This document shows positions 5,934-48,167 of a stretch of DNA of 64,000 nucleotides, one piece after another. Numbering within the stretch: position 1 is the first letter of the stretch; each line of letters starts with the position of its first letter. The stretch is from Escherichia coli. Lineage in GTDB: Bacteria > Pseudomonadota > Gammaproteobacteria > Enterobacterales > Enterobacteriaceae. The translations under genes and the position numbers were made by a program. The stretch lies in NCBI RefSeq assembly GCF_046105845.1, contig NZ_CP151004.1. One strand, written 5' to 3'. Below the pieces are notes generated by a model. The model saw only the letters and a list, made by a program, of their open reading frames with translations. It was not told where the DNA came from and made no database searches.

Positions 5934-6602
5934 ATGAAAAAGCACCTTCTGCCTCTCACTCTGCTGTTTTCCGGAATATCTCCGGCCCAGGCGCTGGATG
6001 TCGGCGATATATCATCGTTTATGAACAGTGACAGCAGCACGCTGAGCAAAACGATCAAAAACAGTACCGACAGTGGTCGCCTCATCAATATCCGTCTCGA
6101 ACGGCTCTCTTCACCGCTTGACGACGGGCAGGTTATCGCAATGGACAAGCCGGATGAGTTGCTACTCACTCCCGCCAGCTTGCTGCTACCCGCCCAAGCC
6201 AGCGAAGTGATCCGCTTCTTCTATAAGGGACCCGCAGATGAAAAAGAGCGCTACTACCGCATTGTCTGGTTTGATCAGGCCCTCAGTGATGCGCAGCGCG
6301 ATAATGCCAACCGAAGCGCTGTAGCCACTGCTTCCGCCCGCATCGGCACCATTCTGGTCGTCGCCCCTCGCCAGGCGAACTACCACTTTCAGTACGCCAA
6401 CGGCTCCCTGACAAATACAGGAAATGCGACGCTGCGGATCCTCGCCTACGGCCCCTGCCTGAAAGCCGTCAATGGTAAGGAGTGTAAAGAGAATTACTAC
6501 CTGATGCCGGGCAAGTCGCGTCGTTTTACCCGCGTGGACACTGCGGATAACAAAGGACGGGTTGCACTTTGGCAGGGTGATAAGTTCATTCCCGTGAAAT
6601 AG
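5934..6602 (+). CDS. ecpB: ECP periplasmic chaperone
   Basis: 222 aa, signal peptide; shares the ...[19 protein letters not shown]... block with EcpE at 10755..11465; operon position. Confidence 0.88.
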
Positions 6603-6627
6603 ATAGCTGTGCAGATGGATAACGACA

Positions 6628-29894: not shown

Positions 29895-30154
29895 GTGAAG
29901 TGTCCCAGCCTGTTTATCTACGGCTTAAAAAGTGTTCGAGGGGAAAATAGGTTGCGCGAGATTATAGAGATCTGGCGCACTAAAAACCAGTATTTCACAT
30001 GAGTCCGCGTCTTTTTACGCACTGCCTCTCCCTGACGCGGGATAAAGTGGTATTCTCAAACATATCTCGCAAGCCTGTCTTGTGTTGACAACATTTTCTG
30101 CTAACCCTGTGACCTGCAATACTGTTTTGCGGGTGATCGACAAGGAGACTTAAC

Positions 30155-31612
30155 GTGTCTGAACTGTCTCAATTATCTCCACAGCCGCTGTGGGATATTT
30201 TTGCCAAAATCTGTTCTATTCCTCACCCGTCCTATCATGAAGAGCAACTCGCTGAATACATTGTTGGTTGGGCAAAAGAGAAAGGTTTCCATGTCGAACG
30301 CGATCAGGTAGGTAATATCCTGATTCGTAAACCTGCTACCGCAGGTATGGAAAATCGTAAACCAGTCGTCTTGCAGGCCCACCTCGATATGGTGCCGCAG
30401 AAAAATAACGACACCGTGCATGACTTCACTAAAGATCCTATCCAGCCTTATATTGATGGCGAATGGGTTAAAGCGCGCGGCACCACGCTGGGTGCGGATA
30501 ACGGCATTGGTATGGCGTCTGCGCTGGCGGTTCTGGCTGACGAAAACGTGGTTCACGGCCCGCTGGAAGTGCTGCTGACCATGACCGAAGAAGCCGGTAT
30601 GGATGGTGCTTTTGGCTTACAGAGCAACTGGTTGCAGGCTGATATTCTGATTAACACCGACTCCGAAGAGGAAGGTGAAATCTACATGGGTTGCGCGGGG
30701 GGTATCGACTTCACCTCCAACCTGCATTTAGATCGTGAAGCGGTTCCCGCTGGTTTTGAAACCTTCAAGTTAACCTTAAAAGGTCTAAAAGGCGGTCACT
30801 CCGGCGGTGAAATCCACGTTGGCCTGGGTAATGCCAACAAACTGCTGGTGCGCTTCCTGGCGGGTCATGCGGAAGAGCTGGACCTGCGCCTTATCGATTT
30901 CAACGGTGGCACACTGCGTAACGCCATCCCGCGTGAAGCCTTTGCGACCATTGCTGTCGCAGCTGATAAAGTCGACGCCCTGAAATCTCTGGTGAATACC
31001 TATCAGGAGATCCTGAAAAACGAGCTGGCAGAGAAAGAGAAAAATCTGGCCTTGTTGCTGGACTCTGTAGCGAACGATAAAGCTGCTCTGATTGCGAAAT
31101 CTCGCGATACCTTTATTCGTCTGCTGAACGCCACCCCGAACGGTGTGATCCGCAACTCCGACGTGGCAAAAGGTGTGGTCGAAACCTCCCTGAACGTCGG
31201 TGTGGTGACCATGACTGACAATAACGTAGAAATTCACTGCCTGATCCGTTCTCTGATCGACAGCGGTAAAGACTACGTGGTGAGCATGCTGGATTCGCTG
31301 GGTAAACTGGCTGGCGCGAAAACCGAAGCGAAAGGCGCGTATCCAGGCTGGCAGCCGGACGCTAATTCTCCGGTGATGCATCTGGTACGTGAAACTTATC
31401 AGCGCCTGTTCAACAAGACGCCGAACATCCAGATTATCCACGCGGGCCTGGAATGTGGTCTGTTTAAAAAACCGTATCCGGAAATGGACATGGTTTCTAT
31501 CGGGCCAACCATCACCGGTCCGCACTCTCCGGATGAGCAGGTTCATATCGAAAGCGTTGGTCATTACTGGACACTGCTGACTGAACTGCTGAAAGAAATT
31601 CCGGCGAAGTAA
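30155..31612 (+). CDS. pepD: cytosol non-specific dipeptidase (aminoacyl-histidine dipeptidase, M20 family)
   Basis: 485 aa from a GTG start; M20 peptidase motifs (HLDMVPQ, MTEEAGMDGA). Confidence 0.9.
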   Translation: MSELSQLSPQPLWDIFAKICSIPHPSYHEEQLAEYIVGWAKEKGFHVERDQVGNILIRKPATAGMENRKPVVLQAHLDMVPQKNNDTVHDFTKDPIQPYIDGEWVKARGTTLGADNGIGMASALAVLADENVVHGPLEVLLTMTEEAGMDGAFGLQSNWLQADILINTDSEEEGEIYMGCAGGIDFTSNLHLDREAVPAGFETFKLTLKGLKGGHSGGEIHVGLGNANKLLVRFLAGHAEELDLRLIDFNGGTLRNAIPREAFATIAVAADKVDALKSLVNTYQEILKNELAEKEKNLALLLDSVANDKAALIAKSRDTFIRLLNATPNGVIRNSDVAKGVVETSLNVGVVTMTDNNVEIHCLIRSLIDSGKDYVVSMLDSLGKLAGAKTEAKGAYPGWQPDANSPVMHLVRETYQRLFNKTPNIQIIHAGLECGLFKKPYPEMDMVSIGPTITGPHSPDEQVHIESVGHYWTLLTELLKEIPAK

Positions 31613-31668
31613 TTATTTGATTTGCTGCCGGATGGCGTTTAATCGCCTTCCGGCAGTTTCATCCTTCA

Positions 31669-32223
31669 TTATCCTTCGATAAAAGCCATCCCTGTAAATG
31701 TCCGTCGCGGGTTGCCACGTTCAATTTGATGATGGAACATTCGCCACTGCGATTTCAGCGCCGCGCTATTTTCCTGTTGCTGTTGTTCCAGCTTCCAGGC
31801 AATCAGCAATCGCGCCAGCCGCTTGTTAGCATGCCCAGAAACCAGTTTTTGCGCCCATGATGAGGCCGATACGGACTCGGACAAATCCACTGAATAGTGC
31901 CGCACCAACTTTCGCTTAATGCCCATGCGTTATCGCCATCCAGAGAAATCAGCGCCGAACGCAGCGTGTCAGAGTAGCGGCCCGTTTCTGTTTCCAGCAC
32001 CGTTACCGCGACGTCTTGCCGGGTAAAAACGGCCTGCGGAGAAGAACGCTGCGCCAATCGGGTAGCCGCGTCCGGGGTGTAAATCTGGCATCCCTACTAC
32101 GCGCTGCATGTTGGGTAAATTTGCCGTGGTGTGTAATTGTTGGATCGCTAAACTCTCGATCCACAGGTCATCAGATGCGATGGTAAATACCGCATAGGAT
32201 AAGGGACGAATATATTTGCCCAT
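31669..32223 (-). pseudogene. prfH: rtcB-like/prfH (release-factor homolog) remnants, frameshifted
   Basis: Three overlapping minus-strand ORFs in different frames: 31969..32223 (RtcB-like N-terminus, ...[14 protein letters not shown]...), 31803..32057 and 31669..31926 (release-factor-like pieces). Needs at least one frameshift to join and lacks most of rtcB. Confidence 0.6.
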
Positions 32224-32467
32224 GTATCATTCCATTTATACTCGTCATACTTCAAGTTGCATGTACTGCGACTCGAATTATTTAGAGTATATAAATATAA
32301 AAATCAGGAAATGGCAGACGAATCCAGGGCAAGAAAAAAGAATTAATCCTGGAAAGGTCTGCAAAGAGTCATTGATAAAGGATTTGTCATGATTTACCTC
32401 CTTGCAGTTTGTGGAATAAGAAAACGCGCACATACCAGGCGGGTGTTATTTTCATTGCAAGCTGAAT

Positions 32468-32920
32468 TTAATGTTGCGGTTTATATCGCATAGAAAAATT
32501 AGTAAACCACGCTCCCCTGCATTCAACGCGCTGCTGCTTAACTGTCTGAAAACCATAACGTTCAAAAAAGGGTTTTGCGGTTATGCTGGCGTCCACCGTA
32601 AGTTCGGATTCAGACTTAATCAAAGGTTTTAACAAAGCGCTGGCAACCCCACAGCGGGTGTATTCAGGGTCAACAAATAACATATCGATATAGTGTTCAA
32701 TGCGGGAAATAAAACCAACCGATTGTGCATTAATGATCGCAACCCACACTTGTGATTTCGCGAATTTCTCCTTCCAGCGAGATTCGTCAATCTGCGCCCA
32801 GGCGGCAATTTGCTGCGGAGAATAGTGCTGACTGGCAGTCATCGTAACCGCTCGAAGGAAAATAGCGCATAGTTGCTGAAAATCGCCAGGCTGATAGTTT
32901 CTTATTTGTATGTTATTCAT
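32468..32920 (-). CDS. yafP: GNAT-family N-acetyltransferase
   Basis: 150 aa; last gene of the dinB-yafN-yafO-yafP cluster. Confidence 0.85.
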   Translation of the reverse strand: MNNIQIRNYQPGDFQQLCAIFLRAVTMTASQHYSPQQIAAWAQIDESRWKEKFAKSQVWVAIINAQSVGFISRIEHYIDMLFVDPEYTRCGVASALLKPLIKSESELTVDASITAKPFFERYGFQTVKQQRVECRGAWFTNFSMRYKPQH

Positions 32921-32929
32921 AATATAAAT

Positions 32930-33328
32930 TCAAAAACGCATGCGAAACGCTTCTGCCATTTTTCCAATTTTATGCATTTGGTTGTTATCTCGAGCCAGTT
33001 TATGAGGTTCAGGCTTCAGAATGGCAATGAGCAACCATGCTTGCTCATCAAACGCACCCTGACAATATACCAAATGCGCTTCGTCATTCGTTCTGCTGAA
33101 TTGGCGCAACTGTGGCGGAAATGGATTATTCACATTTGCCAGATGAATATGAGCAACTCGCTCAAATTTGATTAATGGCCAGGTAAACGAGTCGTCGTAG
33201 AGTGCATCGCGACCAAATATATCTGGCAAAACACCGTCACGCTTATAGGAAATAAAATCCGCCGTTAACGCATCAAGTTCCTCTGCTGTAAGTTGCAGGC
33301 GAATAAGTTTTGTTTTGAATACCCGCAT
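32930..33328 (-). CDS. yafO: ribosome-dependent mRNA interferase toxin YafO
   Basis: 132 aa immediately downstream of yafN; overlapping stop/start architecture. Confidence 0.85.
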   Translation of the reverse strand: MRVFKTKLIRLQLTAEELDALTADFISYKRDGVLPDIFGRDALYDDSFTWPLIKFERVAHIHLANVNNPFPPQLRQFSRTNDEAHLVYCQGAFDEQAWLLIAILKPEPHKLARDNNQMHKIGKMAEAFRMRF

Positions 33329-33330
33329 CC

Positions 33331-33624
33331 TTATTCCTTAAAGTCATTGAAATCATCATCCGTCATATCATTAAGATATTGTTCAGCGCGGCGTGTAATT
33401 TCCTCTAATCTTGCAGCACTTGGACGGAAGCGCGCCTTTATGGGCTTTTTCTCCTCTTGTTCAGCAAGCATGTCCATTAACGCTTCGAATGCGCTGGCAC
33501 TTAAGAGATATCCTGCGGGGCGATTATTAGAAAGAACCGCAACCGGTTGATCAATAAAGTATTTAGCTGGGTTTTTACGTAACTCAGTAATATTGACCGA
33601 TTTTTCAGCGAGAATTCGATGCAT
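33331..33624 (-). CDS. yafN: antitoxin YafN (Phd/YefM-like)
   Basis: 97 aa, acidic C-terminus; between dinB and yafO. Confidence 0.85.
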   Translation of the reverse strand: MHRILAEKSVNITELRKNPAKYFIDQPVAVLSNNRPAGYLLSASAFEALMDMLAEQEEKKPIKARFRPSAARLEEITRRAEQYLNDMTDDDFNDFKE

Positions 33625-33675
33625 ACAGTGATCCCCTCATAATAATGCACACCAGAATAGACATAATAGTATACA

Positions 33676-34731
33676 TCATAATCCCAGCACCAGTTGTCTT
33701 TCCATTTGCGGGTCAAGTAACGTCACATGCAGCCCCACCAGACGCACACCGCGCCCGCCACGGCGTTCATCCCAGGTTTTACGCGCAGTGGCGATCAAGT
33801 CAGCTTTATTCAGCCGTGGCCAGACGTGCTCCTGAGTAGTTTGCTGAAAATCATCAAACTTTAATTTCACCCCCTGGCGAGCAATCAGTAAATCAGGTTT
33901 AACCTTTGCCAGGCGGCGTTCAAGTTCCGGGTACAGCCGCTCGATAATCGCTTCACATTCAGACCAGTGATGAATATCTTCCGCCATCGTGCGTTCCACG
34001 CCGACGGATTTTCGCAACCGTTCGCTGTTAACGTCGCGCTCGTCAATCCCCTGACTACGCTCCCACAAAATGCGGCCAAATTTGCCAAAACGTTTGAGCA
34101 GAGTCACCAGATCACACTTTTGCACATCACCGCAGGTCCGCAGCCCCATCGCTTCCAGTTTTGCCGCCGAAACTTTGCCGACGCCGGGAATTTTTGCCAG
34201 CGGTAAGGTTTGCAGAAATGCCGGAACTTCTGCCGGAGTAATCACAAACTGACCGTTGGGTTTATTCATGTCGGAAGCAATTTTGGCGAGAAACTTTACC
34301 GGCGCAACGCCCGCAGATGCCGTCAGTTGCAGCTCGTTAAAGATCGTCTGACGGATTTCCTGGGCGATGAGGGTCGCGGAGCCGTGGCAATGCACACTAT
34401 CGGTGACGTCGAGATAGGCTTCATCCAGTGATAACGGTTCAATGCGCGAGGTGAAGCGCGAGAAAATTTCGCGGATATGATTTGAGGCTTCTTTGTAGGC
34501 GTCAAAGCGCCCTGGAAGCAGCGTGAGATGTGGGCATAATTTGAGTGCCATCCCTGTCGGCATAGCGCTACGTACGCCAAATTTACGCGCGGGATAATTG
34601 GCGGTGCTGATCACCCCCCGACGTTCGCGGCTGCCGCCAATAGCAATAGGGATATCGCGCAGGGCGGGATTGTCGCGCATCTCCACCGCTGCGAAAAAGC
34701 AGTCCATATCCACATGAATGATTTTACGCAT
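33676..34731 (-). CDS. dinB: DNA polymerase IV (Y-family translesion polymerase)
   Basis: 351 aa starting [33 protein letters not shown]...: canonical Y-family N-terminus. Confidence 0.9.
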
Positions 34732-34745
34732 TGCTCACCTCTCAA

Positions 34746-34765
34746 CACTGGTAAAGTATACAGTG
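34746..34765. promoter_or_regulatory. LexA (SOS) box upstream of dinB
   Basis: CACTGGTAAAGTATACAGTG contains CTG-N10-CAG with an AT-rich core, 15-30 bp upstream of the dinB start. Confidence 0.7.
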
Positions 34766-34801
34766 ATTTCAGGGTTTGAGAAATGCGTAAAGATTCAGCA
34801 T

Positions 34802-35500
34802 CTAGCGCGTTCGCTGCGAATGCACCTGCTGCTTATCCAGCTTTTGCACCAGCGGCTGCACCACTTTATCCCCATGCTGACCAAAGTATTGATACAGCGT
34901 ATCGGACGCACTTTTGGTCAGCACCATAATCTCAATGCGTCGGTTGCCCGCGCTTTGCGGATTTTTCGCGTCCAGCAGCATCTGGTCCGCCATCGCGCTC
35001 ACCTGCATCACTTTATCTTCCGGCATTCCGGCCTCTTCCAGCACCCGACGAGCCGAAAGCGCGCGATCGCCCGAAAGGTTCCAGTTGTTGTAGATATTGT
35101 TTTTGTAGGCCATCGCATCGGTATGCCCGGTAATAATAATTTTGTTATCGAGCGAGTCGAACACTGGCGCGAGCTCCACCAGCAAAGTTTTAAAGAACGG
35201 CATAATCTGTGCGCTGCCGCGTTCAAACATATTGCGGTTCTGGTCATCTTTAATCAGCACGCGCAGTCCCTGGGGAACAATCTCCATCTCCAGATTCGCT
35301 TCCATATGTGCATCACGGGCAATGGTGTTGATACTGGTCGCCAGCTCGCCAAGCTCAGTAGCGGATTTCTTCTTCAGCAGCGCCGTTTTCTCATTGACGT
35401 CACGCGCTTTTTTCTCCGTCTCTTCCGGCACCGCCACGGTGGCAGGTTTTGGCGGATGAGACGGGCTGATTTTATTTAACGGCGACAACCCGCCGCCATT
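34802..35500 (-). pseudogene. lafU: lateral-flagellar MotB-like protein remnant (Flag-2 scar)
   Basis: C-terminal OmpA/MotB-like region (...IITGHTDAMAYKNNIYNNWNLSGDRALSARRVLEEAGMPEDKV...NRRIEIMVL...) with no N-terminal TM anchor; the 5' part of the annotated ORF is merely antisense to the lfhA fragment. 5' boundary approximate. Confidence 0.6.
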
Positions 35501-35539
35501 GAAAATCGACTGCCCGTGCAGCGCGGCGATAATGCTTTC

Positions 35540-37271
35540 ACGCTCGGATTTACTGACGCTGTTGACAATCAACTTTATCGTCGTCACCAAAGGGGCCGAG
35601 CGTATTTCCGAGGTTTCTGCCCGCTTTACCTTAGACGCGATGCCCGGTAAACAGATGGCGATTGACGCCGATCTTAACGCTGGGTTGATCAACCAGGCGC
35701 AGGCGCAAACCCGGCGTAAAGATGTTGCCAGCGAGGCCGATTTCTACGGCGCGATGGACGGGGCATCGAAGTTTGTGCGCGGGGACGCCATCGCCGGGAT
35801 GATGATTCTGGCGATCAACCTGATCGGCGGCGTCTGTATCGGCATCTTCAAATACAACCTGAGCGCCGACGCCGCCTTCCAGCAGTATGTGCTGATGACC
35901 ATCGGCGACGGGCTGGTGGCGCAGATCCCGTCCCTGCTGCTCTCCACCGCGGCGGCAATTATCGTCACCCGCGTCAGCGACAATGGCGATATCGCCCATG
36001 ACGTGCGCCACCAGCTGCTGGCAAGCCCGTCGGTGCTCTACACCGCCACCGGGATCATGTTTGTGCTGGCGGTGGTGCCGGGGATGCCGCATCTGCCATT
36101 TTTGCTGTTCAGCGCCCTGCTGGGTTTTACCGGCTGGCGGATGAGCAAACGCCCGCAGGCGGCGGAGGCGGAGGAGAAAAGCCTCGAAACGCTGACCCGC
36201 ACCATCACCGAAACCAGCGAGCAACAGGTCAGTTGGGAGACTATTCCGCTGATCGAACCCATCAGTTTAAGCCTCGGTTACAAACTGGTGGCGCTGGTCG
36301 ATAAAGCGCAGGGTAACCCACTCACCCAGCGTATTCGCGGCGTGCGGCAAGTGATATCCGACGGCAACGGCGTGCTGCTGCCGGAGATCCGTATTCGGGA
36401 AAACTTCCGCCTCAAGCCCAACCAGTACGCCATATTCATCAACGGCATTAAGGCCGATGAAGCGGATATTCCGGCGGATAAACTGATGGCCCTGCCCTCC
36501 AGCGAAACCTACGGCGAGATTGACGGCGTGCTGGGGAACGACCCGGCGTACGGGATGCCGGTCACCTGGATTCAGCCTGCGCAGAAAGCGAAGGCGCTGA
36601 ATATGGGGTATCAGGTGATCGACAGCGCCAGCGTGATTGCCACCCATGTGAACAAGATTGTCCGCAGCTATATTCCTGATTTGTTTAACTATGACGATAT
36701 TACTCAGCTGCATAACCGTTTGTCGTCGATGGCACCGCGACTGGCGGAAGATTTGAGCGCGGCGCTCAATTACAGCCAGTTGCTGAAAGTGTACCGGGCG
36801 CTACTGACTGAAGGCGTTTCCCTACGCGATATCGTCACCATCGCCACCGTGCTGGTCGCCAGTAGCACAGTGACCAAAGATCATATTCTGCTGGCAGCTG
36901 ATGTGCGCCTGGCGCTACGGCGCAGCATTACCCATCCGCTCGTTCGCAAGCAGGAGCTGACGGTGTATACGCTGAATAATGAGCTGGAAAATCTGCTGAC
37001 CAACGTGGTGAATCAGGCGCAACAGGCCGGCAAAGTGATGCTCGACAGCGTGCCGGTGGACCCGAATATGCTTAACCAGTTCCAGAGTACGATGCCACAG
37101 GTGAAGGAGCAGATGAAAGCGGCGGGGAAAGACCCGGTGCTGCTGGTGCCGCCGCAACTGCGTCCATTGCTGGCGCGCTATGCAAGGTTGTTTGCGCCGG
37201 GGCTGCATGTGCTGTCGTATAACGAAGTGCCGGATGAGCTGGAGTTGAAGATTATGGGGGCGCTGAGTTGA
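35540..37271 (+). pseudogene. lfhA: FlhA-family export-gate protein, N-terminally truncated (Flag-2 scar)
   Basis: Reading frame carries FlhA motifs (VVTKGAERISEVSARFTLDAMPGKQMAIDADLNAG) but starts inside the membrane domain with no proper N-terminus or RBS; overlaps the lafU remnant. 5' boundary approximate. Confidence 0.65.
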
Positions 37272-37307
37272 TGCCTTTTAAGAAACACAATACGATGACA
37301 TCAATTT

Positions 37308-37703
37308 ATGACGTCAGGGATTGATAAGATGATGAAAACGCGTTTATTAATATCTCAAGCATCGAACATTATCACCATTAAAGGTCAACCAGCCGCAGTG
37401 ACATTTGAAGCCGATATCAACGCATTTCGCGGCAAATTTCTCAATGTAAATGGTTATTGCGACTTTGTAGCGACAAGCATTGAGGCGTTATACCGGGAAG
37501 GTGAAAGTGCGCTGGATGAGTGGATGGCGGATTGTGAAGAGGACGGCATTGCCCCTTTTCGTGAAGAAGAGCAAAAACGCCTGACGCTTCGTGTTCCTCA
37601 TCACATCGATTCACGACTGACCATTGTCGCCAGACAACATTCCATTTCAAAAAATCAGCTCATTGTTGATGTATTAGAACGTGAGTTTTCATCCCAGATG
37701 TAA
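37308..37703 (+). CDS. HicB-like antitoxin-fold protein with C-terminal ribbon-helix-helix
   Basis: 131 aa; the C-terminus (KRLTLRVPHHIDSRLTIVARQHSISKNQLIVDVLEREF) looks like a CopG/Arc-type RHH; the N-terminal half resembles the HicB fold only loosely. Followed by a clear terminator. Confidence 0.45.
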   Translation: MTSGIDKMMKTRLLISQASNIITIKGQPAAVTFEADINAFRGKFLNVNGYCDFVATSIEALYREGESALDEWMADCEEDGIAPFREEEQKRLTLRVPHHIDSRLTIVARQHSISKNQLIVDVLEREFSSQM

Positions 37704-37708
37704 ACAGG

Positions 37709-37737
37709 TCGGATGCCGTGTGGCATCCGATTTTTTT
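37709..37737 (+). terminator. rho-independent terminator
   Basis: TCGGATGCC-GTGT-GGCATCCGA followed by TTTTTTT, 6 bp after the stop of the 131-aa gene. Confidence 0.6.
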
Positions 37738-37759
37738 CCTGATCGTCAGTATTCTCCGT

Positions 37760-38518
37760 TTACAAAATCGTCTCTTCCGTCAAAATCCTGCGCGCGCCTA
37801 AAAAATGATCCTGCCAGAAAGGCTCAGCTAACCGACTTACCCGAATGGTTTCCCCCGTGCGCGGCGACTCGATAAACTGACCGTCTCCCAGATACACGCC
37901 CATATGATCGGCTATCTCGCGGCTGTGGATATGGAAAAACAGCAAATCTCCCCGGCGCAGGTCGTTGTTCGCCACAATCGTTGCCCGATGGTAGTGATAC
38001 ATCTCATTAGCCGTACGCGGGAGCTTCGCCTCGAGGATCTTGTTGTAGGCATAAAAAACCAACCCGCTACAGTCGAAGCCTTGATCAGGCCGCGTGCCGC
38101 CCCAGACGTAAGGTTTGCCAAGCTGCTGCTCCAGGCGGTGAATCGCCACTTCGGTGATGTTGTGTAGATGGTCGCTGCTTAAGAAATGGTTGTTCTCCGC
38201 CAGCGCCTGCCAGCGTCTGTCACTCGCCTTGAGCGGCGCAGGAAACCATTCTGGATGCTGTTTTATCTGTTCGCGGTTGTGCTGGCGCAGCGCCTTTCTG
38301 CTTTCGGCATTGCCTTCCACAATGTAGCTGGCCTGCTTTTTCAGATGGGTTTGGTACTGTTTTAATAAACGCGCCCGGTTTTGCATCCGCTGGCGGGCGG
38401 CGTAGCTGAAAGAGATATGTGATGTGGTGGCGCTGGCGAGTAAAGGGAGCAAAACGCATAACGAAAACACGCCTGGATGCAGAAATCTGCCGTGAAAGAA
38501 CGAAGACATGAAGGACAT
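37760..38518 (-). CDS. yafL: NlpC/P60 (C40) family peptidase lipoprotein
   Basis: C-terminal NlpC/P60 signature (FDCSGLVFYAY ... HMGVYLG); N-terminal signal/lipoprotein-like region; start may be the second Met. Confidence 0.85.
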   Translation of the reverse strand: MSFMSSFFHGRFLHPGVFSLCVLLPLLASATTSHISFSYAARQRMQNRARLLKQYQTHLKKQASYIVEGNAESRKALRQHNREQIKQHPEWFPAPLKASDRRWQALAENNHFLSSDHLHNITEVAIHRLEQQLGKPYVWGGTRPDQGFDCSGLVFYAYNKILEAKLPRTANEMYHYHRATIVANNDLRRGDLLFFHIHSREIADHMGVYLGDGQFIESPRTGETIRVSRLAEPFWQDHFLGARRILTEETIL

Positions 38519-38809
38519 AAACTAGCTGAATGAAGGAGAGAATTTTAAAAGGTTGGGGGAGTAAACGGGATTATTAATTGCTTATTTGCATATTAGTTAC
38601 GAGGTTTCATAATCTTAGGAAATAAGTGATACATGCGCTTTTCGGACTAATGAAAACTGCCCCTGTGCTAAATTTGTAAACCCTGCGCCGACAGGCTTGC
38701 GTAAAACTCTTTTGGTGATAATGTGAGCCTTCCAAATCCAGACTATTCCGATTTGGGATCCATTTTGCCGTCCTGGCGTGTGTAACCGTTTTATCAAGGA
38801 ATAAGCAGT

Positions 38810-39550
38810 ATGCGTAAAATCGCATTAATTCTTGCGATGTTGTTGATCCCGTGCGTTTCGTTTGCCGGTTTGCTGGGCAGCAGTAGCTCAACCACGCCAG
38901 TGAGCAAAGAGTATAAGCAGCAGTTGATGGGATCCCCTGTCTACATCCAGATCTTCAAGGAAGAACGTACGCTCGATCTCTACGTCAAAATGGGCGAGCA
39001 ATATCAGCTGCTCGACAGTTATAAAATCTGTAAATATTCCGGCGGCTTAGGGCCAAAACAGCGTCAGGGCGATTTCAAAAGCCCGGAAGGGTTTTATAGC
39101 GTCCAGCGTAATCAGTTAAAACCAGACAGCCGTTACTACAAAGCAATTAATATTGGATTCCCCAATGCCTATGACCGTGCGCATGGTTATGAAGGGAAAT
39201 ACCTGATGATCCACGGCGATTGTGTTTCCATCGGCTGCTACGCGATGACCAATCAGGGTATTGATGAGATCTTCCAGTTCGTTACTGGTGCGCTGGTGTT
39301 TGGTCAGCCGAGCGTGCAAGTGAGTATTTACCCGTTCCGCATGACCGACGCCAATATGAAGCGCCATAAGTATTCCAACTTTAAGGACTTCTGGGAGCAA
39401 CTGAAACCGGGCTACGACTACTTTGAGCAAACCCGTAAGCCACCGACCGTTTCTGTGGTCAATGGCCGTTACGTGGTCAGCAAGCCGTTAAGCCACGAAG
39501 TTGTGCAACCACAGCTGGCATCAAACTACACGCTCCCCGAGGCAAAATAA
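38810..39550 (+). CDS. yafK: L,D-transpeptidase-fold periplasmic protein YafK
   Basis: 246 aa; signal peptide [19 protein letters not shown]; YkuD-like catalytic region ([14 protein letters not shown]). Confidence 0.85.
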
Positions 39551-40288
39551 GCGCCATTCGCCTGGCATAATCTTTTGCCAGGTTTCATTGCCCGTCAGCG
39601 GCTGTGTCGCAATCACCGTGACCACATCATTCGGTGTGGTCTGCGAGCTGAAGTCGATTTCCACATCCTGATCCAGCAACGTTGCCACGCCAAACGGCGC
39701 GCGGCGGGTGATCCAGTGTAAATTAGTCGAGCAATACGCCATTACATAGCGCCCGTCAGAAAGCAGCATGTTGAAAACGCCCTTCTGCCGCAGTTCATCC
39801 GCCAGTGAGGCGATATATTTAAACACTGCCGCCATGTTGCCCGGTGTGCGCGGGTAACGCTGCGTTAATTTATGCAGGAGCCAGCAGAAGGCTTTTTCGC
39901 TGTCGGTTTCACCGACCGGGCGGAAGTTGCCGGTTTCCAGTGATTTATAGCCCGTCAGTTGCCCATTATGGGCATAAGTCCAGTTACGCCCCCATAACTC
40001 GCGGGTAAACGGGTGAGTATTTTCCAGCGCCACCTCGCCCCGATTCGCCTGGCGAATATGAGCCACCACCGAACAGGATTTTATCGGGTAGTCCTGGACA
40101 AGTTTGGCGATGGGAGAATTAAAGCTGGGTTGCGGATCTTTAAATGTGCGACAGCCTTTACCTTCGTAAAAGGTAATGCCCCAGCCATCTTTATGTGGCC
40201 CGGTTCCACCACCACGCTGTACAAGCCCGGTGAAACTAAAGCAGATATCGGTAGGGACGTTGGCGCTCATCCCGAGCAATTCGCACAT
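39521..40288 (-). CDS. yafJ: class II glutamine amidotransferase
   Basis: Start at MCELLGMS... (Cys2 nucleophile typical of class II amidotransferases), 255 aa. Confidence 0.85.
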
Positions 40289-40403
40289 GGGTAACCTCCA
40301 CAACAGCGGGAGCGCATGGCCCCCGGCGAAGATTGATTAAAAAGTACAAAGGTTCAGGCTGTTACCCTCACCCCGGCCCTCTCCCTGAAAGGGAGAAAAG
40401 ACC

Positions 40404-40982
40404 TTACTTAACCATCTCTTTTTCAATCAACTGGATCAGGATATGGATCACTTTAATGTGAATCTCCTGAATGCGGTCGGCATAACCAAAGTGCGGTACG
40501 CGAATTTCGATATCCGCTGTGCCAGCCATTTTACCGCCGTCTTTACCGGTCAGGGTGATCACTTTCATCCCCTTCTCACGCGCCGCCGCGATCGCTTTGA
40601 TCACGTTTGCAGAGTTACCGGAGGTGGAGATCCCCAGCAGTACATCGCCTTCGCGACCTACCGCTTCAACGTAACGGGAGAAAATATCATTGAAACCAAA
40701 ATCGTTACCGACGCAGGAAATATGACTAACGTCAGAAATGGCAATCGCCGGATAGCCCGGACGGTTTTCACGGTAGCGACCGGTCAACTCTTCGGCAAAG
40801 TGCATGGCGTCGCAATGGGAGCCGCCGTTGCCGCAGGAAAGCACTTTACCACCGGCTTTAAAGCTGTCTGCTAACAGGACCGCCGCGCGCTGAATGGCGT
40901 GAATATTGGCGTCATCTTTTAAAAAGTTAGCCAGCGTTTCCGCCGCTTCGTTCAGTTCATTACGAATAAGATCCTGGTACAT
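40404..40982 (-). CDS. gmhA: D-sedoheptulose 7-phosphate isomerase
   Basis: 192 aa from [20 protein letters not shown]...; SIS-domain motifs. Confidence 0.9.
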
Positions 40983-41221
40983 GAGGATATCCTTCAGCAT
41001 AAATGTAATAGACAAAATGCAGTGTACCGGATACCGCCAAAAGCGAGAAGTACGGGCAGGTGCTATGACCAAGACTTTTTGACCTGAAGTGCGGATAAAA
41101 ACAGCAACAATGTGAGCTTTGTTGTAATTATATTGTAAACGTATTGCTAAATGTTTTTACATCCACTACAACCATATCATCACAAGTGGTCAGACCTCCT
41201 ACAAGTAAGGGGCTTTTCGTT

Positions 41222-43666
41222 ATGATGATTTTGAGTATTCTCGCTACGGTTGTCCTGCTCGGCGCGTTGTTCTATCACCGCGTGAGCTTATTTATCAGCA
41301 GTCTGATTTTGCTCGCCTGGACAGCCGCCCTCGGCGTTGCTGGTCTGTGGTCGGCGTGGGTACTGGTGCCTCTGGCCATTATCCTCGTGCCATTTAACTT
41401 TGCGCCTATGCGTAAGTCGATGATTTCCGCGCCGGTATTTCGCGGTTTCCGTAAGGTAATGCCGCCGATGTCGCGCACTGAGAAAGAAGCGATTGATGCG
41501 GGCACCACCTGGTGGGAGGGCGACTTGTTCCAGGGCAAGCCGGACTGGAAAAAGCTGCATAACTATCCGCAGCCGCGCCTGACCGCAGAAGAGCAAGCGT
41601 TTCTCGACGGCCCGGTAGAAGAAGCCTGCCGGATGGCGAATGATTTCCAGATTACTCATGAGATGGCTGATTTGCCGCCGGAGTTGTGGGCGTACCTTAA
41701 AGAGCATCGTTTCTTCGCGATGATCATCAAAAAAGAGTACGGCGGGCTGGAGTTCTCGGCTTATGCCCAATCTCGTGTGCTGCAAAAACTCTCCGGCGTG
41801 AGCGGGATCCTGGCAATTACCGTCGGCGTGCCGAACTCATTAGGCCCGGGCGAGCTACTGCAACATTACGGCACTGATGAGCAGAAAGATCACTATCTGC
41901 CACGTCTGGCGCGTGGTCAGGAGATCCCTTGCTTTGCACTGACCAGCCCGGAAGCGGGTTCCGATGCGGGCGCGATTCCGGACACCGGGATTGTCTGCAT
42001 GGGCGAATGGCAGGGCCAGCAGGTGCTGGGGATGCGTCTGACCTGGAACAAGCGTTACATTACGCTGGCACCGATTGCGACTGTGCTTGGCCTGGCATTT
42101 AAACTCTCCGACCCGGAAAAACTGCTGGGTGGCGCAGAAGATTTAGGTATTACCTGTGCGCTGATCCCGACTACCACGCCGGGCGTGGAAATTGGTCGTC
42201 GCCACTTCCCGCTGAACGTACCGTTCCAGAACGGACCGACGCGAGGTAAAGATGTGTTCGTGCCGATCGATTACATCATCGGCGGGCCGAAAATGGCCGG
42301 GCAAGGCTGGCGGATGCTGGTGGAGTGCCTCTCGGTAGGCCGCGGCATCACCCTGCCTTCCAACTCAACCGGCGGCGTGAAATCGGTAGCGCTGGCAACG
42401 GGTGCGTATGCGCACATCCGCCGTCAGTTCAAAATCTCTATTGGTAAGATGGAAGGGATTGAAGAGCCGCTGGCGCGTATTGCCGGAAACGCTTATGTAA
42501 TGGATGCTGCGGCATCGCTGATTACCTACGGCATTATGCTCGGTGAAAAACCTGCCGTGCTGTCGGCTATCGTTAAGTATCACTGTACCCACCGTGGGCA
42601 GCAGTCGATTATTGATGCGATGGATATCACTGGTGGCAAAGGCATTATGCTCGGGCAGAGCAACTTCCTGGCCCGTGCTTACCAGGGCGCACCGATTGCC
42701 ATCACCGTTGAAGGGGCTAACATTCTGACCCGCAGCATGATGATCTTCGGACAAGGAGCGATTCGTTGCCATCCGTACGTGCTGGAAGAGATGGAAGCGG
42801 CGAAGAACAATGACGTCAACGCGTTCGATAAACTCCTGTTTAAACATATCGGTCACGTCGGTAGCAACAAAGTTCGCAGCTTCTGGCTGGGCCTGACGCG
42901 CGGTTTAACCAGCAGCACGCCAACCGGCGATGCCACTAAACGCTACTATCAGCACCTGAACCGCCTGAGCGCCAACCTCGCCCTGCTTTCTGATGTCTCG
43001 ATGGCTGTGCTGGGCGGCAGCCTGAAACGTCGTGAGCGTATCTCGGCACGTCTGGGGGATATTTTAAGCCAGCTTTACCTCGCCTCTGCCGTTCTGAAGC
43101 GTTATGACGACGAAGGCCGTAATGAAGCCGACCTGCCGCTGGTGCACTGGGGCGTACAGGATGCGCTGTATCAGGCTGAACAGGCGATGGATGATTTACT
43201 GCAAAACTTCCCGAACCGCGTGGTTGCCGGGCTGCTGAATGTGGTGATCTTCCCGACCGGACGTCATTATCTGGCACCTTCTGACAAGCTGGATCATAAG
43301 GTGGCGAAGATTTTACAAGTGCCGAACGCCACCCGTTCACGTATTGGTCGCGGTCAGTACCTGACGCCGAGCGAGCATAACCCGGTTGGTTTACTGGAAG
43401 AGGCGCTGGTGGATGTGATTGCCGCCGACCCAATTCATCAGCGGATCTGTAAAGAGCTGGGTAAAAACCTGCCGTTTACCCGTCTGGATGAACTGGCGCA
43501 CAACGCGCTGGCGAAGGGGCTGATTGATAAAGATGAAGCCGCTATGCTGGTGAAAGCTGAAGAAAGCCGTCTGCGCAGTATTAACGTTGATGACTTTGAT
43601 CCGGAAGAGCTGGCGACGAAGCCGGTAAAGTTGCCGGAGAAAGTGCGGAAAGTTGAAGCCGCGTAA
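41222..43666 (+). CDS. fadE: acyl-CoA dehydrogenase
   Basis: 814 aa from [18 protein letters not shown]...; N-terminal membrane segment then acyl-CoA dehydrogenase domains. Confidence 0.9.
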
Positions 43667-43673
43667 TTGAATA

Positions 43674-43699
43674 ACGGAGCCGAAAGGCTCCGTTTCTTT
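43674..43699. terminator. terminator hairpin between convergent fadE and ivy
   Basis: ACGGAGCC-GAAA-GGCTCCGT followed by TTCTTTAT. Confidence 0.6.
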
Positions 43700-43708
43700 A
43701 TCCGCTAA

Positions 43709-44182
43709 TTATTTAAAATTAAAGCCATCCGGATGGTTTTCCAGGCTGCCGGTCAACGCCGCGAACAGCACCGTTTTACCATCAATCGAAAGCGCATCGT
43801 TCACATTCAACCAGGTGAGTTTCTCTTGCGACGTTTTCTCATCAATGGTCGAGAACAGCCCCGTCATCTGATTAGATTTCTCGGACCACATCACAGCGAT
43901 ACGTTGCGAGCCACAGTCATGCGGTTTGCACGCGCTCATCACCTGATACGTCTCATCTCCCAATGTCACGGTTTGTGCAGGGGTATAAGTCCCGCCTTTC
44001 ATCACCCAAGCAGGCAGCTTATGCCCTTGCACCATCTGATTAAACGCAGCTTTGGTGGTTTCGCCCTTTGCAAGGCTGCTAATGGTTAAATCATCCTGCG
44101 CCATTGCACTGGTGGCGATGACCAGAGCGGCGACTGTCGTTATTGCCTTAAACATCATTCCTCCCGAGCTTATCCTGCCCAT
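43709..44182 (-). CDS. ivy: inhibitor of vertebrate C-type lysozyme
   Basis: 157 aa, signal peptide, conserved CKPHDC loop. Confidence 0.9.
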   Translation of the reverse strand: MGRISSGGMMFKAITTVAALVIATSAMAQDDLTISSLAKGETTKAAFNQMVQGHKLPAWVMKGGTYTPAQTVTLGDETYQVMSACKPHDCGSQRIAVMWSEKSNQMTGLFSTIDEKTSQEKLTWLNVNDALSIDGKTVLFAALTGSLENHPDGFNFK

Positions 44183-44335
44183 GTTATTAACCTCCTAAAG
44201 CCTGGCGATAACACGATAATTTGCAAATCAGATATTTCCAATATCAGCATTTGTTATCAATTTATTCTGCGCTAAGGCAACTGCCTGATAAGGTGTTAGA
44301 GTTATAAAACCCTTCGCATAAAGGAGTTGTACACC

Positions 44336-45106
44336 GTGCCTGGTTTGAAGATTACGCTTTTACAGCAACCACTGGTGTGGATGGATGGTCCTGCCAACCT
44401 GCGTCATTTTGATCGTCAACTGGAAGGCATTACCGGGCGCGATGTGATCGTTCTACCGGAGATGTTTACCAGCGGCTTTGCCATGGAAGCGGCAGCTGCG
44501 TCGCTAGCACAAGATGACGTAGTGAACTGGATGACAGCCAAAGCGCAGCAGTGCAATGCGCTGATTGCAGGCAGTGTTGCATTACAAACGGAGTCTGGTT
44601 CGGTTAACCGCTTTTTGCTGGTTGAGCCGGGCGGCACGGTACATTTTTATGATAAGCGTCATCTGTTCCGCATGGCAGATGAGCATCTGCATTATAAAGC
44701 GGGCAATGCGCGAGTGATTGTGGAATGGCGCGGCTGGCGTATTTTGCCGCTGGTGTGCTACGACTTACGTTTTCCGGTGTGGTCGCGCAATCTCAACGAT
44801 TACGACCTCGCCCTGTACGTCGCCAACTGGCCTGCTCCGCGCTCTCTGCACTGGCAGGCATTGCTGACGGCCCGCGCGATTGAGAATCAAGCGTATGTGG
44901 CGGGATGCAATCGCGTCGGCAGCGATGGCAACGGCTGCCATTATCGCGGTGACAGCCGGGTGATTAATCCACAGGGCGAGATTATCGCCACCGCCGACGC
45001 GCATCAGGCAACGCGCATTGATGCGGAGCTGTCGATGGTGGCGTTGCGGGAGTATAGAGAAAAGTTTCCGGCATGGCGGGATGCGGATGAGTTTAGGTTG
45101 TGGTGA
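44336..45106 (+). CDS. yafV: omega-amidase (nitrilase-superfamily C-N hydrolase)
   Basis: Start set at GTG giving MPGLKITLLQQ... (256 aa); nitrilase-family E-K-C triad context (VCYDLRFP). Confidence 0.85.
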   Translation: MPGLKITLLQQPLVWMDGPANLRHFDRQLEGITGRDVIVLPEMFTSGFAMEAAAASLAQDDVVNWMTAKAQQCNALIAGSVALQTESGSVNRFLLVEPGGTVHFYDKRHLFRMADEHLHYKAGNARVIVEWRGWRILPLVCYDLRFPVWSRNLNDYDLALYVANWPAPRSLHWQALLTARAIENQAYVAGCNRVGSDGNGCHYRGDSRVINPQGEIIATADAHQATRIDAELSMVALREYREKFPAWRDADEFRLW

Positions 45107-45219
45107 GTGGGTGTTGTGTTTAGGGCCGGGGAGAGTCGGGGTATGACTACGAAAGCCCCTAACTTAAACACGATATTACGCCAGAAGTCACCATTTCCAA
45201 AACACAACGCCGTTGTACC

Positions 45220-45390
45220 GTGGGATATCTGCCCAACAGCAGCGACACGCCGGTGATCAAAATCAGCGCCAAATGGCTGAGAGAAGCGGGATTTGAGATC
45301 GGCACGGGCGTTACCGTGAAGATCCCGGAAGGTTGCCTGATCCTGCTTGCGGATAACAACGAAGTACAGGAACTGAGGAAGGAACTTTAT
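45220..45390 (+). pseudogene. SymE-like (AbrB-fold type I toxin family) gene fragment
   Basis: From a GTG start, ...TPVIKISAKWLREAGFEIGTGVTVKIPEGCLILLA... closely resembles the SymE core (KGQWLEAAGF.TGT.V.VKV.EGCIVL). The frame then continues for ~100 codons antisense to the convergent MucR-like gene, which I regard as non-coding read-through. 3' boundary approximate. Confidence 0.4.
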
Positions 45391-45758
45391 AAGGTTAAAC
45401 AGGCTGTCTTCAATATAGAACCGGAGCGATTACGCCAGTCAGGATCTGACTTTAGTTGCCTTCTCTTTATTCTCATCATGGCTATTTGTTCTGCGGGATC
45501 AAGCTTTCCCTTTGCTATTCTCGCCTTCATATATTCAATTTGTTTCTCCAGATATGAAATCCCTGCCAGTGCGATGTGCTTCGGTATGTTCCATTTTTCA
45601 CGATATTCGTCAGCGCGTATTCCATGCACAAACCAGATATGGCGCGGTAAAAAAATGAGCAACTTGCCACACTCCAGACAGGGTATTTTTTCCCGCTTAT
45701 GATATGCCAGAACCTCTTCACGCGTTTCGAATGGCCTGTTCCTCTCTTTTTTGTACAC
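45387..45758 (-). CDS. Ros/MucR-family zinc-finger transcriptional regulator
   Basis: 123 aa with the Ros/MucR signature IPCLECGKLLIFLPRHIWFVHGIRADEYREKWNIP (C-x2-C ... H-x4-H followed by EYREKW.LP). Confidence 0.7.
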   Translation of the reverse strand: MYKKERNRPFETREEVLAYHKREKIPCLECGKLLIFLPRHIWFVHGIRADEYREKWNIPKHIALAGISYLEKQIEYMKARIAKGKLDPAEQIAMMRIKRRQLKSDPDWRNRSGSILKTACLTL

Positions 45759-45822
45759 AAAGACTCCTTTTAAAAAATGGCAAGGTCACATATCCCTTAT
45801 TGGTACATAAATCCCCCGACGT

Positions 45823-47199
45823 TTACTGACTTTGTTCCACCTTCGTATCCAGTAAAATTACATAGCGATTCAGCAACTGATTTAACCGGGTATCTATCTG
45901 CGTCAACAGCGTCGGCGAAACCTCTCCGGTCTGTTTTTGCTCTTCCAGTTGCCGAAGCAGTTCTTCCAGCGGCGGCTCCTTTAACGACTGCCGGATGCCG
46001 TACACCGCCGTTTTTAGTTCCGAGCCGGTCAGATATCTCCCCTTACGCTCATCCAGTGCATCCAGCTGCGCCGACAGGCGCTGTAGCTGGCTTTGCGCCT
46101 GTGCGTAGCCATTCAATGCCTCAGCAGACATGGCGCTCAGCTCCCGCTGCTTACGCCACTGCGCGTTCAGCGCCCTGACCTGAGGATTATCCGGCCACAG
46201 GGCATCAAGCTGGCGTAGCTGGCGATATCCCTGCTCCAGCGGCCAGCGGGCAGGCAATTTGTTTAACTGCTCCAGCTGCATCTGACTTGCCGCAATTGTT
46301 CTGTCCTGAGCCAGCAGCGCCTTATCCTTTACATCCAGCTTTGCCAGTTCGCCGCTCTCCAGCGACTGCGGCAACGGCATGACAGACAGTTGTATTCGCT
46401 GGATTAGCGCGTCCGGCTGATTAAGCTGCGACCAGCCCCATAATCCTGTTCCGCCGAGACAGGCCATCACAACCATTCCGGCCATAAATATCGGCCATGC
46501 CCGCTGCCGGGAGATTTCAGGGGATGGCACGGATGGACTGGCATCCTTATCGTTTTGCTGAGCGGGTCTGGTTGCAAAAACCGGCTGTGGACTTTCTTCT
46601 GACTTTTTCGGTTGCTTCATTTCCTTGCGGGGTAATTCAGGGGGAGTGATAGTGGTTTCCGCTCCCTGTGGTGCCAGCCGCTCCAGACGTAGCGCCGCAT
46701 TACGAAACTGCCCGGCCAGCACATCCAGTTTCGTCATATGCCACAGTTCACACTGTTGCAGCGTGGTTTCGATGGCGGAAAGATGCTGTACACAACGGTA
46801 AATCTGCGGCAGATCCTGATACTGAATATCCAGCGTTCTCAGTGCCTGCTGCATTTTTTCTGTGACCCAGCTGAGCAGTGATATTCTGGAATGTACCTGT
46901 ACCGGCCAGAAGTCGGCCCATCGCTGGAGCAGTATGTCCAGTGAACCGAGTCCGTCTGCCATCCCTGCCAGCCCCTGCCGTCTGGTTATCGCCAGTACGT
47001 AACAGACCAGCGTCTGTAATTCCACGCCATTTTGCCGGAACAGCGCGAGGCTGAGTTTTTCCACCTGACGCCAGTCCACATCCGGTCGGGCCGGGTGAGT
47101 CAGTTTACTCATTTCAGCCTGCAGTTCACCGGATTCCTTATAAGTACAGGGATCGCCGCCCATGACGAACTGGCTGATAAAATTCGCGTTACTTGCCAT
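45823..47199 (-). CDS. TssA-family (ImpA_N domain) membrane-anchored T6SS accessory protein, TagA/VasL-like
   Basis: 458 aa; N-terminal ImpA_N-like region (GGDPCTYKESGELQAEMSKL...), one central TM helix (AWPIFMAGMVVMACLGGTGLWGW), Q/L-rich coiled-coil C-terminus; last gene of the T6SS block. Confidence 0.6.
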   Translation of the reverse strand: MASNANFISQFVMGGDPCTYKESGELQAEMSKLTHPARPDVDWRQVEKLSLALFRQNGVELQTLVCYVLAITRRQGLAGMADGLGSLDILLQRWADFWPVQVHSRISLLSWVTEKMQQALRTLDIQYQDLPQIYRCVQHLSAIETTLQQCELWHMTKLDVLAGQFRNAALRLERLAPQGAETTITPPELPRKEMKQPKKSEESPQPVFATRPAQQNDKDASPSVPSPEISRQRAWPIFMAGMVVMACLGGTGLWGWSQLNQPDALIQRIQLSVMPLPQSLESGELAKLDVKDKALLAQDRTIAASQMQLEQLNKLPARWPLEQGYRQLRQLDALWPDNPQVRALNAQWRKQRELSAMSAEALNGYAQAQSQLQRLSAQLDALDERKGRYLTGSELKTAVYGIRQSLKEPPLEELLRQLEEQKQTGEVSPTLLTQIDTRLNQLLNRYVILLDTKVEQSQ

Positions 47200-47627
47200 C
47201 AGTACGCCCGCTCCTGCTGTTTGAGATGACGCAGAACAATTCGTCCTTCCGGAGAAAATACGCCATCAAAGCGTATCCAGCCGGTATCGGGAAGCTGCGC
47301 GTGGATCAGGTAATTAAGATGCCCCGGACGGGGCTGGGGGAGTAACTCCACCTGTATCTGACTCAGGCGTGGTTCATAACGCAGCAGCGTTTCTTCAATC
47401 TGACGCATCAGGCCATGAATACCCGCAGCCATCCCCTGATGGATCAGACTGAGATCCGGCAGACCGTAATCCGGCAAATGCGCCAGCGTGCCTGCCCGAC
47501 AGTTGATAATGCGTTGCATATTGTCCATCACGGAAAGGATAAGCTGATCCCGCTCGCTGACCTGTTCCAGTGGTAACTCGCCGCTGAAACTGAACGTCAG
47601 CATTTCATATAAGGAAGGTGTCGACAT
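47199..47627 (-). CDS. tssE: T6SS baseplate protein TssE (gp25-like)
   Basis: 142 aa, size and position between tssJ and the TagA-like gene with a 1-nt overlap; family call by context. Confidence 0.7.
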   Translation of the reverse strand: MSTPSLYEMLTFSFSGELPLEQVSERDQLILSVMDNMQRIINCRAGTLAHLPDYGLPDLSLIHQGMAAGIHGLMRQIEETLLRYEPRLSQIQVELLPQPRPGHLNYLIHAQLPDTGWIRFDGVFSPEGRIVLRHLKQQERAY

Positions 47628-47630
47628 CGG

Positions 47631-48167
47631 TTATTTATCCTTGAGAGGCAGCAGTCGCAGGTCGCTTCTCATCAGTTCAATCGAGCGCGGCTTGTCGGCC
47701 TCCAGTTCGTCCCTTTTGATCACCAGACGCCAGCTGTCGCTTTTTTCATCAGGGTGATAAAACTGCCCGATAATGGCGACAAACTGCGTCTCTTTATCCA
47801 GCGGCTCATTCAGGGATGCCGTGCCTTCCGGTTTTACCCAGACGGTGTGTTTTGCCAGTACGTCCTTCTCCAGCGTCTTCTCTTCCTGCATAAACAGGGT
47901 GTCATAATCCGCCTTGTCAAAATCTTCGCGGGTTTTCAGTTGCCAGACATGCACCATCGTGGAAAGCGGCGTATCTTCCGCATCCGTATTCAGGGCACTT
48001 CGGGAGAAGAAATCGAGATGCAGTATTTTGATTTGCTTGTAGAAAACGGCTGAGGCCACGCTTTTCGATTCATCCACCACTTTCTGAATCAGCCCGCAGC
48101 CACTCAGAACAACCGTCAGCATCGCCATACAGAGCAGCGCCGGACGTTTAAAACGAATAGGAAACAT
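47631..48167 (-). CDS. tssJ: T6SS outer-membrane lipoprotein TssJ
   Basis: 178 aa; lipoprotein signal with lipobox LSGC (MFPIRFKRPALLCMAMLTVVLSGC). Confidence 0.7.
   Translation of the reverse strand: MFPIRFKRPALLCMAMLTVVLSGCGLIQKVVDESKSVASAVFYKQIKILHLDFFSRSALNTDAEDTPLSTMVHVWQLKTREDFDKADYDTLFMQEEKTLEKDVLAKHTVWVKPEGTASLNEPLDKETQFVAIIGQFYHPDEKSDSWRLVIKRDELEADKPRSIELMRSDLRLLPLKDK

Follow-up and report, generated by a model that had tools for sequence, protein, structure and literature searches.

A probably ancestral-type yafL-yafK/dpaA interval without dinJ-yafQ in Escherichia coli

Organization of the yafL-yafK locus

In the window, that is the whole 64-kb stretch of E. coli DNA that was analyzed, yafL and yafK/dpaA are divergent direct neighbours with 291 bp between them, and they lie in the following setting:

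34802-37271: what remains of the Flag-2 flagellar cluster, namely lafU and a truncated lfhA
37308-37703, plus strand: HicB-family open reading frame (ORF), 131 aa
37760-38518, minus strand: yafL, NlpC/P60 (C40) peptidase gene, from the ORF list
38519-38809: yafL-yafK interval, 291 bp
38810-39550, plus strand: yafK/dpaA (ldtF), peptidoglycan meso-diaminopimelic acid protein amidase gene (NF040599)
Right of yafK/dpaA: yafJ, gmhA and fadE, in that order

The identity of both neighbours is clear. YafK scores 428 bits against the NCBIfam equivalog NF040599 (LdtF_DpaA_YafK; cutoff 365) and shares 100% amino acid identity with K-12 DpaA, YafL carries the NlpC/P60 domain (Pfam PF00877, 114 bits), and the annotation of near-identical genomes also uses the names yafL and yafK. 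Counted from the first ATG (38518), yafL encodes 252 aa; the PGAP annotation of near-identical genomes starts the gene at the second ATG (38509), which gives an interval of 300 bp instead of 291 bp, and the choice between the two starts has no effect on the remaining results.

The other flank of yafL is polymorphic, with rayT in K-12 and MS7163, a full hicA-hicB in strain 144 and hicB only in the window. The window gene is an orphan of the HicB family (PF05534, 41 bits) within 37272-37703, between the lfhA remnant and yafL, and its first ~10 codons differ from the strain-144 version. HicA (PF07927) is absent at this site, where the roughly 300 bp that encode it in strain 144 are missing, which leaves HicB without the adjacent HicA of a hicAB type II module. 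A strain-144 hicAB query matched at the site in 1479 of 5426 E. coli genomes, with 1371 of these matches covering at least 80% of the query, including hicA; the partial matches, among those listed, hold hicB only, as in the window. The yafN-yafO pair of the dinB-yafN-yafO-yafP operon is present on the minus strand at 32933-33624 (YafN 100% identical to K-12; YafO 99% identical to strain 7/2), and the window thus has one intact (yafN-yafO), one decayed (hicB only) and one empty toxin-antitoxin site within 6 kb.

The overlap of lafU and truncated lfhA at 34802-37271 is a Flag-2 lateral-flagella deletion scar, as in K-12; XJ6.1, the strain most similar over yafL-yafK (99.6%), has an intact Flag-2 cluster with full-length flhA. 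Across window positions 30000-50000, identity reaches only 97.5-97.7% in the best-matching complete E. coli genome, and co-linearity with strains such as 7/2 ends at about 45130; in strain MEW the match runs on into genes for type VI secretion (TssG, VasL). The weak best match and the break in co-linearity thus point to a mosaic with an island downstream of yafV.

Absence of dinJ-yafQ and replacement relative to K-12

Persistence studies have made use of ten mRNA-cleaving toxin modules of K-12, and the dinJ-yafQ pair is among them. A sequence-only reading of the window had placed this module between yafK and yafL in K-12, which the MG1655 annotation bears out:

245065-245805: dpaA
245961-246239: yafQ
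246242-246502: dinJ
246712-247461: yafL

The spacers in MG1655 are 155 bp (dpaA-yafQ) and 209 bp (dinJ-yafL), and the same order of dpaA, yafQ, dinJ and yafL is given in Table 1 of PMC5120126. The same reading had noted a gap of about 290 bp between yafL and yafK with no ORF of the dinJ or yafQ kind, and had proposed a TBLASTN search with both proteins; the gap measures 291 bp, and the search, run on the 64-kb window, agreed with that observation. With tblastn, K-12 DinJ gave a best E-value of 2.8 against the 64-kb window and nothing against the interval alone, while K-12 YafQ gave a best E-value of 0.30 against the window and, against the interval, a 24-residue chance match as its best. The 830-bp K-12 segment described below, searched by blastn at word size 7, found only chance words of 8-11 nt in the interval and a single chance word of 14 nt in the rest of the window. 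The plus strand of the interval (38519-38809) has no ORF of at least 30 aa, its sole ORF being one of 20 aa (38723-38785), and the two minus-strand ORFs (94 aa and 60 aa) match no family. A degenerate dinJ-yafQ remnant in another frame was rejected, as the permissive tblastn and blastn searches gave nothing. The interval therefore holds none of the parts of a dinJ-yafQ type II toxin-antitoxin module: no DinJ ORF, no YafQ ORF and no DNA homologous to its promoter/operator.

Alignment to the K-12 locus (L001 coordinates) divides the region as follows:

Window 37752-38445, K-12 7471-6777: 93% identity (blastn)
Window 38446-38669 (224 bp), K-12 5947-6776 (830 bp): not alignable; in the window a haplotype-specific segment in which 151 bp of upstream sequence adjoin the first 73 nt of yafL
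Window 38669-38670: right-hand junction, which in K-12-type genomes lies 15 nt past the yafQ stop codon (blastn and alignment)
Window 38670-40341, K-12 5946-4275: 98.2% identity (blastn)

In K-12, the 830 bp span the module genes yafQ and dinJ with the dinJ promoter region, and then run through ~150 bp of sequence upstream of yafL into the gene itself, of which they take in the first 64 nt. That the 224 bp and the 830 bp cannot be aligned is backed both by the alignment and by shuffle-controlled global alignments (z = 0.5 to 2.3). An alignment with K-12, which the sequence-only reading had also proposed, does show the module missing at the site, and it shows in addition an exchange of 830 bp for 224 bp that reaches into yafL. 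As judged from these alignments, the dinJ-yafQ polymorphism is a replacement covering the yafL promoter region and signal-peptide codons and not a clean insertion.

The boundary within yafL is sharp, since K-12 and the module-free alleles share ~40% identity over the first 60 nt and 85-100% in the later 60-nt bins. The window yafL encodes an ancestral-type signal peptide, MSFMSSFFHGRFLHPGVFSLCVLLPLLASA, with the type of N-terminus found in E. albertii and Citrobacter. The YafL signal peptides of K-12 (MSLPSIPSFVLSGLLLICLPFSSFASA) and the window (MSSFFHGRFLHPGVFSLCVLLPLLASA) have 8 of 27 residues in common, and each, counted from the annotated start, has 27 residues with a Cys at position 18. 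In register, the window signal peptide matches those of other Escherichia species at 16-18 of 27 residues and that of C. braakii at 11 of 27 (shuffle P about 0.001), and the K-12-type signal peptide matches Citrobacter/Kluyvera, at the same length, at 12 of 27 (shuffle P about 0.0004). The idea that the K-12 yafL N-terminus is a foreign, non-homologous sequence was softened because both types match Citrobacter in register (11-12 of 27, shuffle P about 0.001 or below), and for this reason the two signal-peptide types are probably homologues that have diverged very far. Within E. coli, the mature part of yafL is itself unusually polymorphic, with 93-97% nucleotide identity between strains compared with about 98% for the neighbouring yafK; the signal-peptide codons fall into two sharp classes, and at each locus examined the class agrees with whether dinJ-yafQ is present.

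Distribution of the two alleles and ancestral state of the site

A search of 5426 complete E. coli genomes located the window-type 224 bp (the empty allele) in 2084 (~38%), about 100 of them at 99% identity or more to the window and the others at 77-95%, and the 830-bp dinJ-yafQ segment of K-12 in 3342 (~62%). Added together, the counts give 5426, the total that would result if nearly every genome held one allele or the other; this is consistent with disjoint allele sets and not strict proof of them. Among 29 evenly spaced matches to the whole yafL-yafK region, 12 were module-free (single-piece) and 17 module-bearing. The proposal of the sequence-only reading that the module is an accessory insertion absent from this genome is thus upheld as regards its accessory nature (3342 of 5426 genomes) and its absence within the 64-kb window, and needs correcting only in that the event was a replacement and not a pure insertion. 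The distribution agrees with the literature, where yafQ-dinJ is reported from every genome of the EB1A lineage but, in the FGB2 lineage, from phylogroup F only (PMC6896753), YafQ is described as widespread in phylogroups A, B1 and F (PMC10790755), and a review finds no toxin-antitoxin system conserved across four reference strains (PMC7167474). An uneven phylogroup distribution of dinJ-yafQ is already published, and the empty site reported here is ordinary.

Relatives were scanned with YafK, taking one genome per species, which gave 80 Enterobacteriaceae loci. A yafL adjoining yafK without dinJ-yafQ is present in E. albertii, Escherichia sp. E1V33, the E. coli-labelled outlier SCPM-O-B-8794, nine Citrobacter loci and Phytobacter massiliensis, with a start-to-start yafL-yafK distance of 290-380 bp in the module-free relatives, and most other genera among the 80 loci have no yafL at the yafK-adjacent position. 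In E. albertii, E1V33 and SCPM-O-B-8794, the corresponding interval shares 75-78% identity with the window 224 bp. As expected of an unoccupied yafL-yafK/dpaA region, the interval in the window lies between divergent neighbours, is homologous to that of module-free relatives and retains an intact yafK-proximal block. Since the module-free outgroups have the window-type YafL N-terminus, the occupied state would be the derived one. We therefore favour, with a probability of roughly 90%, the reading that the empty yafL-yafK site is ancestral and the occupied state derived, and that the window carries a normal member of the empty type, composed of 151 fast-evolving bp and a conserved yafK-proximal block, in a lineage that either never received the module-bearing segment or regained the empty allele by recombination. 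On this reading, the variable part of the interval and the first ~25 yafL codons would have been replaced in ~62% of genomes by the 830-bp segment, which would bring a different yafL 5' end and promoter region together with dinJ-yafQ, oriented as yafK. Escherichia sp. MOD1-EC7003, the only scanned relative with the module at the site, also has the K-12-type yafL 5' end; alleles have crossed species lines by recombination, and presence or absence does not map cleanly to species. For this reason the ancestry of the window allele is inferred from its sequence type and not from a reconstructed tree.

It is very unlikely that the window lineage once had dinJ-yafQ at this site and then deleted it. 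Toxin-antitoxin modules do decay, as seen at the neighbouring hicAB site of the window, where the toxin gene has been lost, and in E. coli PSS-11 (NZ_AP027694.1, 2023171-2024083), where an IS1 lies beside the last 44 nt of yafQ, followed by dpaA, and where part of Flag-2, yafL, dinJ and most of yafQ have gone in a deletion associated with the IS1, a true secondary loss. A deletion inside a K-12-type haplotype would, however, have left a K-12-type yafL 5' end, whereas the 224-bp segment of the window, including the yafL signal-peptide codons, is homologous to module-free Escherichia alleles and resembles the K-12 segment only at chance level; nor was any deletion scar seen in the interval, or any remnant of dinJ, yafQ or their promoter. 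In-place deletion is thus largely refuted by the alignments, and loss would be possible only as replacement of the whole allele from a module-free donor, which is indistinguishable from never having had the module. There is equally little chance that dinJ-yafQ resides elsewhere in this genome, whether chromosomal or plasmid-borne, beyond the 64 kb of the window: some genomes do have the K-12 segment at two places, it occurs on 15 plasmid records (mostly F-prime-like with chromosomal DNA), and distant DinJ/YafQ-like pairs are found on ~40-kb enterobacterial plasmids, but genomes with the empty allele (2084) and those with any K-12 match (3342) total exactly 5426, as expected if very few hold both, and YafQ is rare outside phylogroups A, B1, E and F in published surveys (PMC6896753; PMC10790755).

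Conserved region upstream of yafK

The interval consists of two parts of different character, the second of which contains a possible promoter:

38519-38669: variable, lineage-specific intergenic part, 151 bp, with no conservation across the 80 Enterobacteriaceae loci
38670-38809, plus strand: conserved 140-bp block directly upstream of yafK
38697-38724, plus strand: candidate yafK promoter, with a -35 element TTGCGT (38697-38702), a 16-nt spacer and an extended -10 element TGaTAATGT (38716-38724)

The yafL promoter presumably lies within 38519-38669. This part also contains a promoter-like match directed toward yafK (38585-38613, TTTGCA-17-CATAAT), and the consensus promoter scan as a whole returned 2 sites, which is not above the shuffle expectation of 1.1. 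Between the window and K-12 the 140-bp block does not differ at all (100% identity), and its identity is 93.6% with E. albertii and 86% with C. braakii; conservation of the block equals or exceeds that of the yafK coding sequence. Column conservation over the 80 species is absent through 38669 and sets in abruptly at 38671, the strongest conserved blocks being TTGTAAAC (38674-38681), CTTGCG (38696-38701) and TG-n-TAATGTGAGC (38716-38728), followed by further strong blocks at TTTGCCGTCCTGGCG and, just before the yafK ATG, TTTATCAAGGAAT. In the columns of the candidate promoter, CTTGCG, which lies 16-17 nt upstream of the TG-n-TAATGT motif, is conserved at 96-100%, TG at 100% and TAATGT at 93-100%, compared with 11% for the base between TG and TAATGT. 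Although the consensus scan did not call it, the pattern TTGCGT-16-TGaTAATGT fits an extended -10 promoter and is proposed as a candidate on the strength of this conservation.

The 140-bp block therefore probably comprises the yafK/dpaA promoter, regulator sites, a leader of about 80 nt and the Shine-Dalgarno sequence AAGGAA. Other readings of the sequence were rejected. No part of the interval matched Rfam at E <=1 and a small RNA was rejected accordingly, the lone Rfam match (23.8 bits at 37681-37740) lying outside the interval and being irrelevant to it; a structured leader in the block was rejected on its fold z-score of -0.21; the hairpin at 38730-38758 is often broken and shows no compensatory change across the 80 species; and a leader peptide encoded by the 20-aa ORF at 38723-38785 was rejected, as the ORF varies from 3 to 50 codons and its frame shifts among species.

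Our data suggest an autonomous yafK promoter, contrary to the RegulonDB entry as quoted in PMC5120126, according to which yafK has no promoter, is likely cotranscribed and depends on read-through from dinJ. K-12-type genomes have the module immediately upstream of the 140-bp block, pointing in the same direction as yafK, so that transcripts from the dinJ promoter could extend into yafK in those genomes, which is impossible here. In the window, yafK would rely on its own conserved upstream block, without transcription from a dinJ promoter.

Origin of the module-bearing segment

Plasmids of ~40 kb from Klebsiella, Citrobacter and Enterobacter carry RelB/DinJ and RelE/YafQ-family pairs with 68% nucleotide identity to the K-12 module. 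The match spans positions 215-796 of the 830-bp K-12 segment and covers the promoter/operator, the antitoxin and the toxin; it begins 59 nt ahead of the dinJ start codon and breaks off 19 nt short of the yafQ stop codon. These limits agree with the transferable unit set out in the part of PMC5120126 that cites Ramisetty and Santhosh (2016), namely a promoter plus two ORFs with no terminator, and the extent of the plasmid homologues delimits a putative mobile unit. The plasmid copies are without the yafL-proximal 214 bp of the K-12 segment, and no such pair is present in the window. These ~214 bp (the yafL promoter region and signal-peptide codons of the module haplotype) have no detectable DNA similarity to the empty allele and are not explained by the mobile unit.

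A tentative and rather doubtful explanation is an exchange of alleles in place of an insertion, in which a yafL-dinJ-yafQ-yafK segment entered Escherichia by homologous recombination from a distant enterobacterial donor not yet sampled, the crossovers falling in two conserved stretches, the mature part of yafL and the block upstream of yafK. A donor of the K-12-type segment was not found, and among the 120 best YafL clusters the K-12-type signal peptide occurs only in Escherichia-like proteins. Plasmids with high-identity matches were rejected as donors, these being F-prime-like plasmids with chromosomal DNA. If such an allele exchange did take place, the haplotypes would also differ in the export of YafL and in the transcription of yafL and yafK.

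Significance and comparison with known loci

The finding is of little import in itself. Variation at this locus is already known, and the sharp contrast between the haplotypes in signal peptide and promoter of yafL is a minor detail, probably undescribed. The finding does mean that K-12 is no universal template for the yafL-yafK locus, given that more than a third of complete E. coli genomes have no dinJ-yafQ and that absence of the module is probably the older state. Both haplotypes keep the family-wide conserved block upstream of yafK/dpaA, and the claim that yafK has no promoter, as well as the effects of dinJ-yafQ deletions on yafK, therefore merit checking.

In comparison with the known loci, the K-12 yafL-dinJ-yafQ-dpaA locus (b0227-b0224) has the same flanking genes in the same relative orientation as the window, with yafK, yafJ and the 140 bp upstream of yafK 98-100% identical and the mature part of yafL 93% identical, and differs on the other side of yafL in having rayT where the window has the orphan hicB. 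The module-free E. coli strains 7/2, XJ6.1, 144 and MS7163, together with E. albertii, share the arrangement of the window at a similar spacing (288-311 bp by annotation). Over the 224-bp segment, identity to the window is 100% in 7/2 and TOE51, 93% in 144, 88% in MS7163 and about 75% in E. albertii, and the module-free loci of E. coli and E. albertii differ from that of the window only by sequence divergence and small indels.
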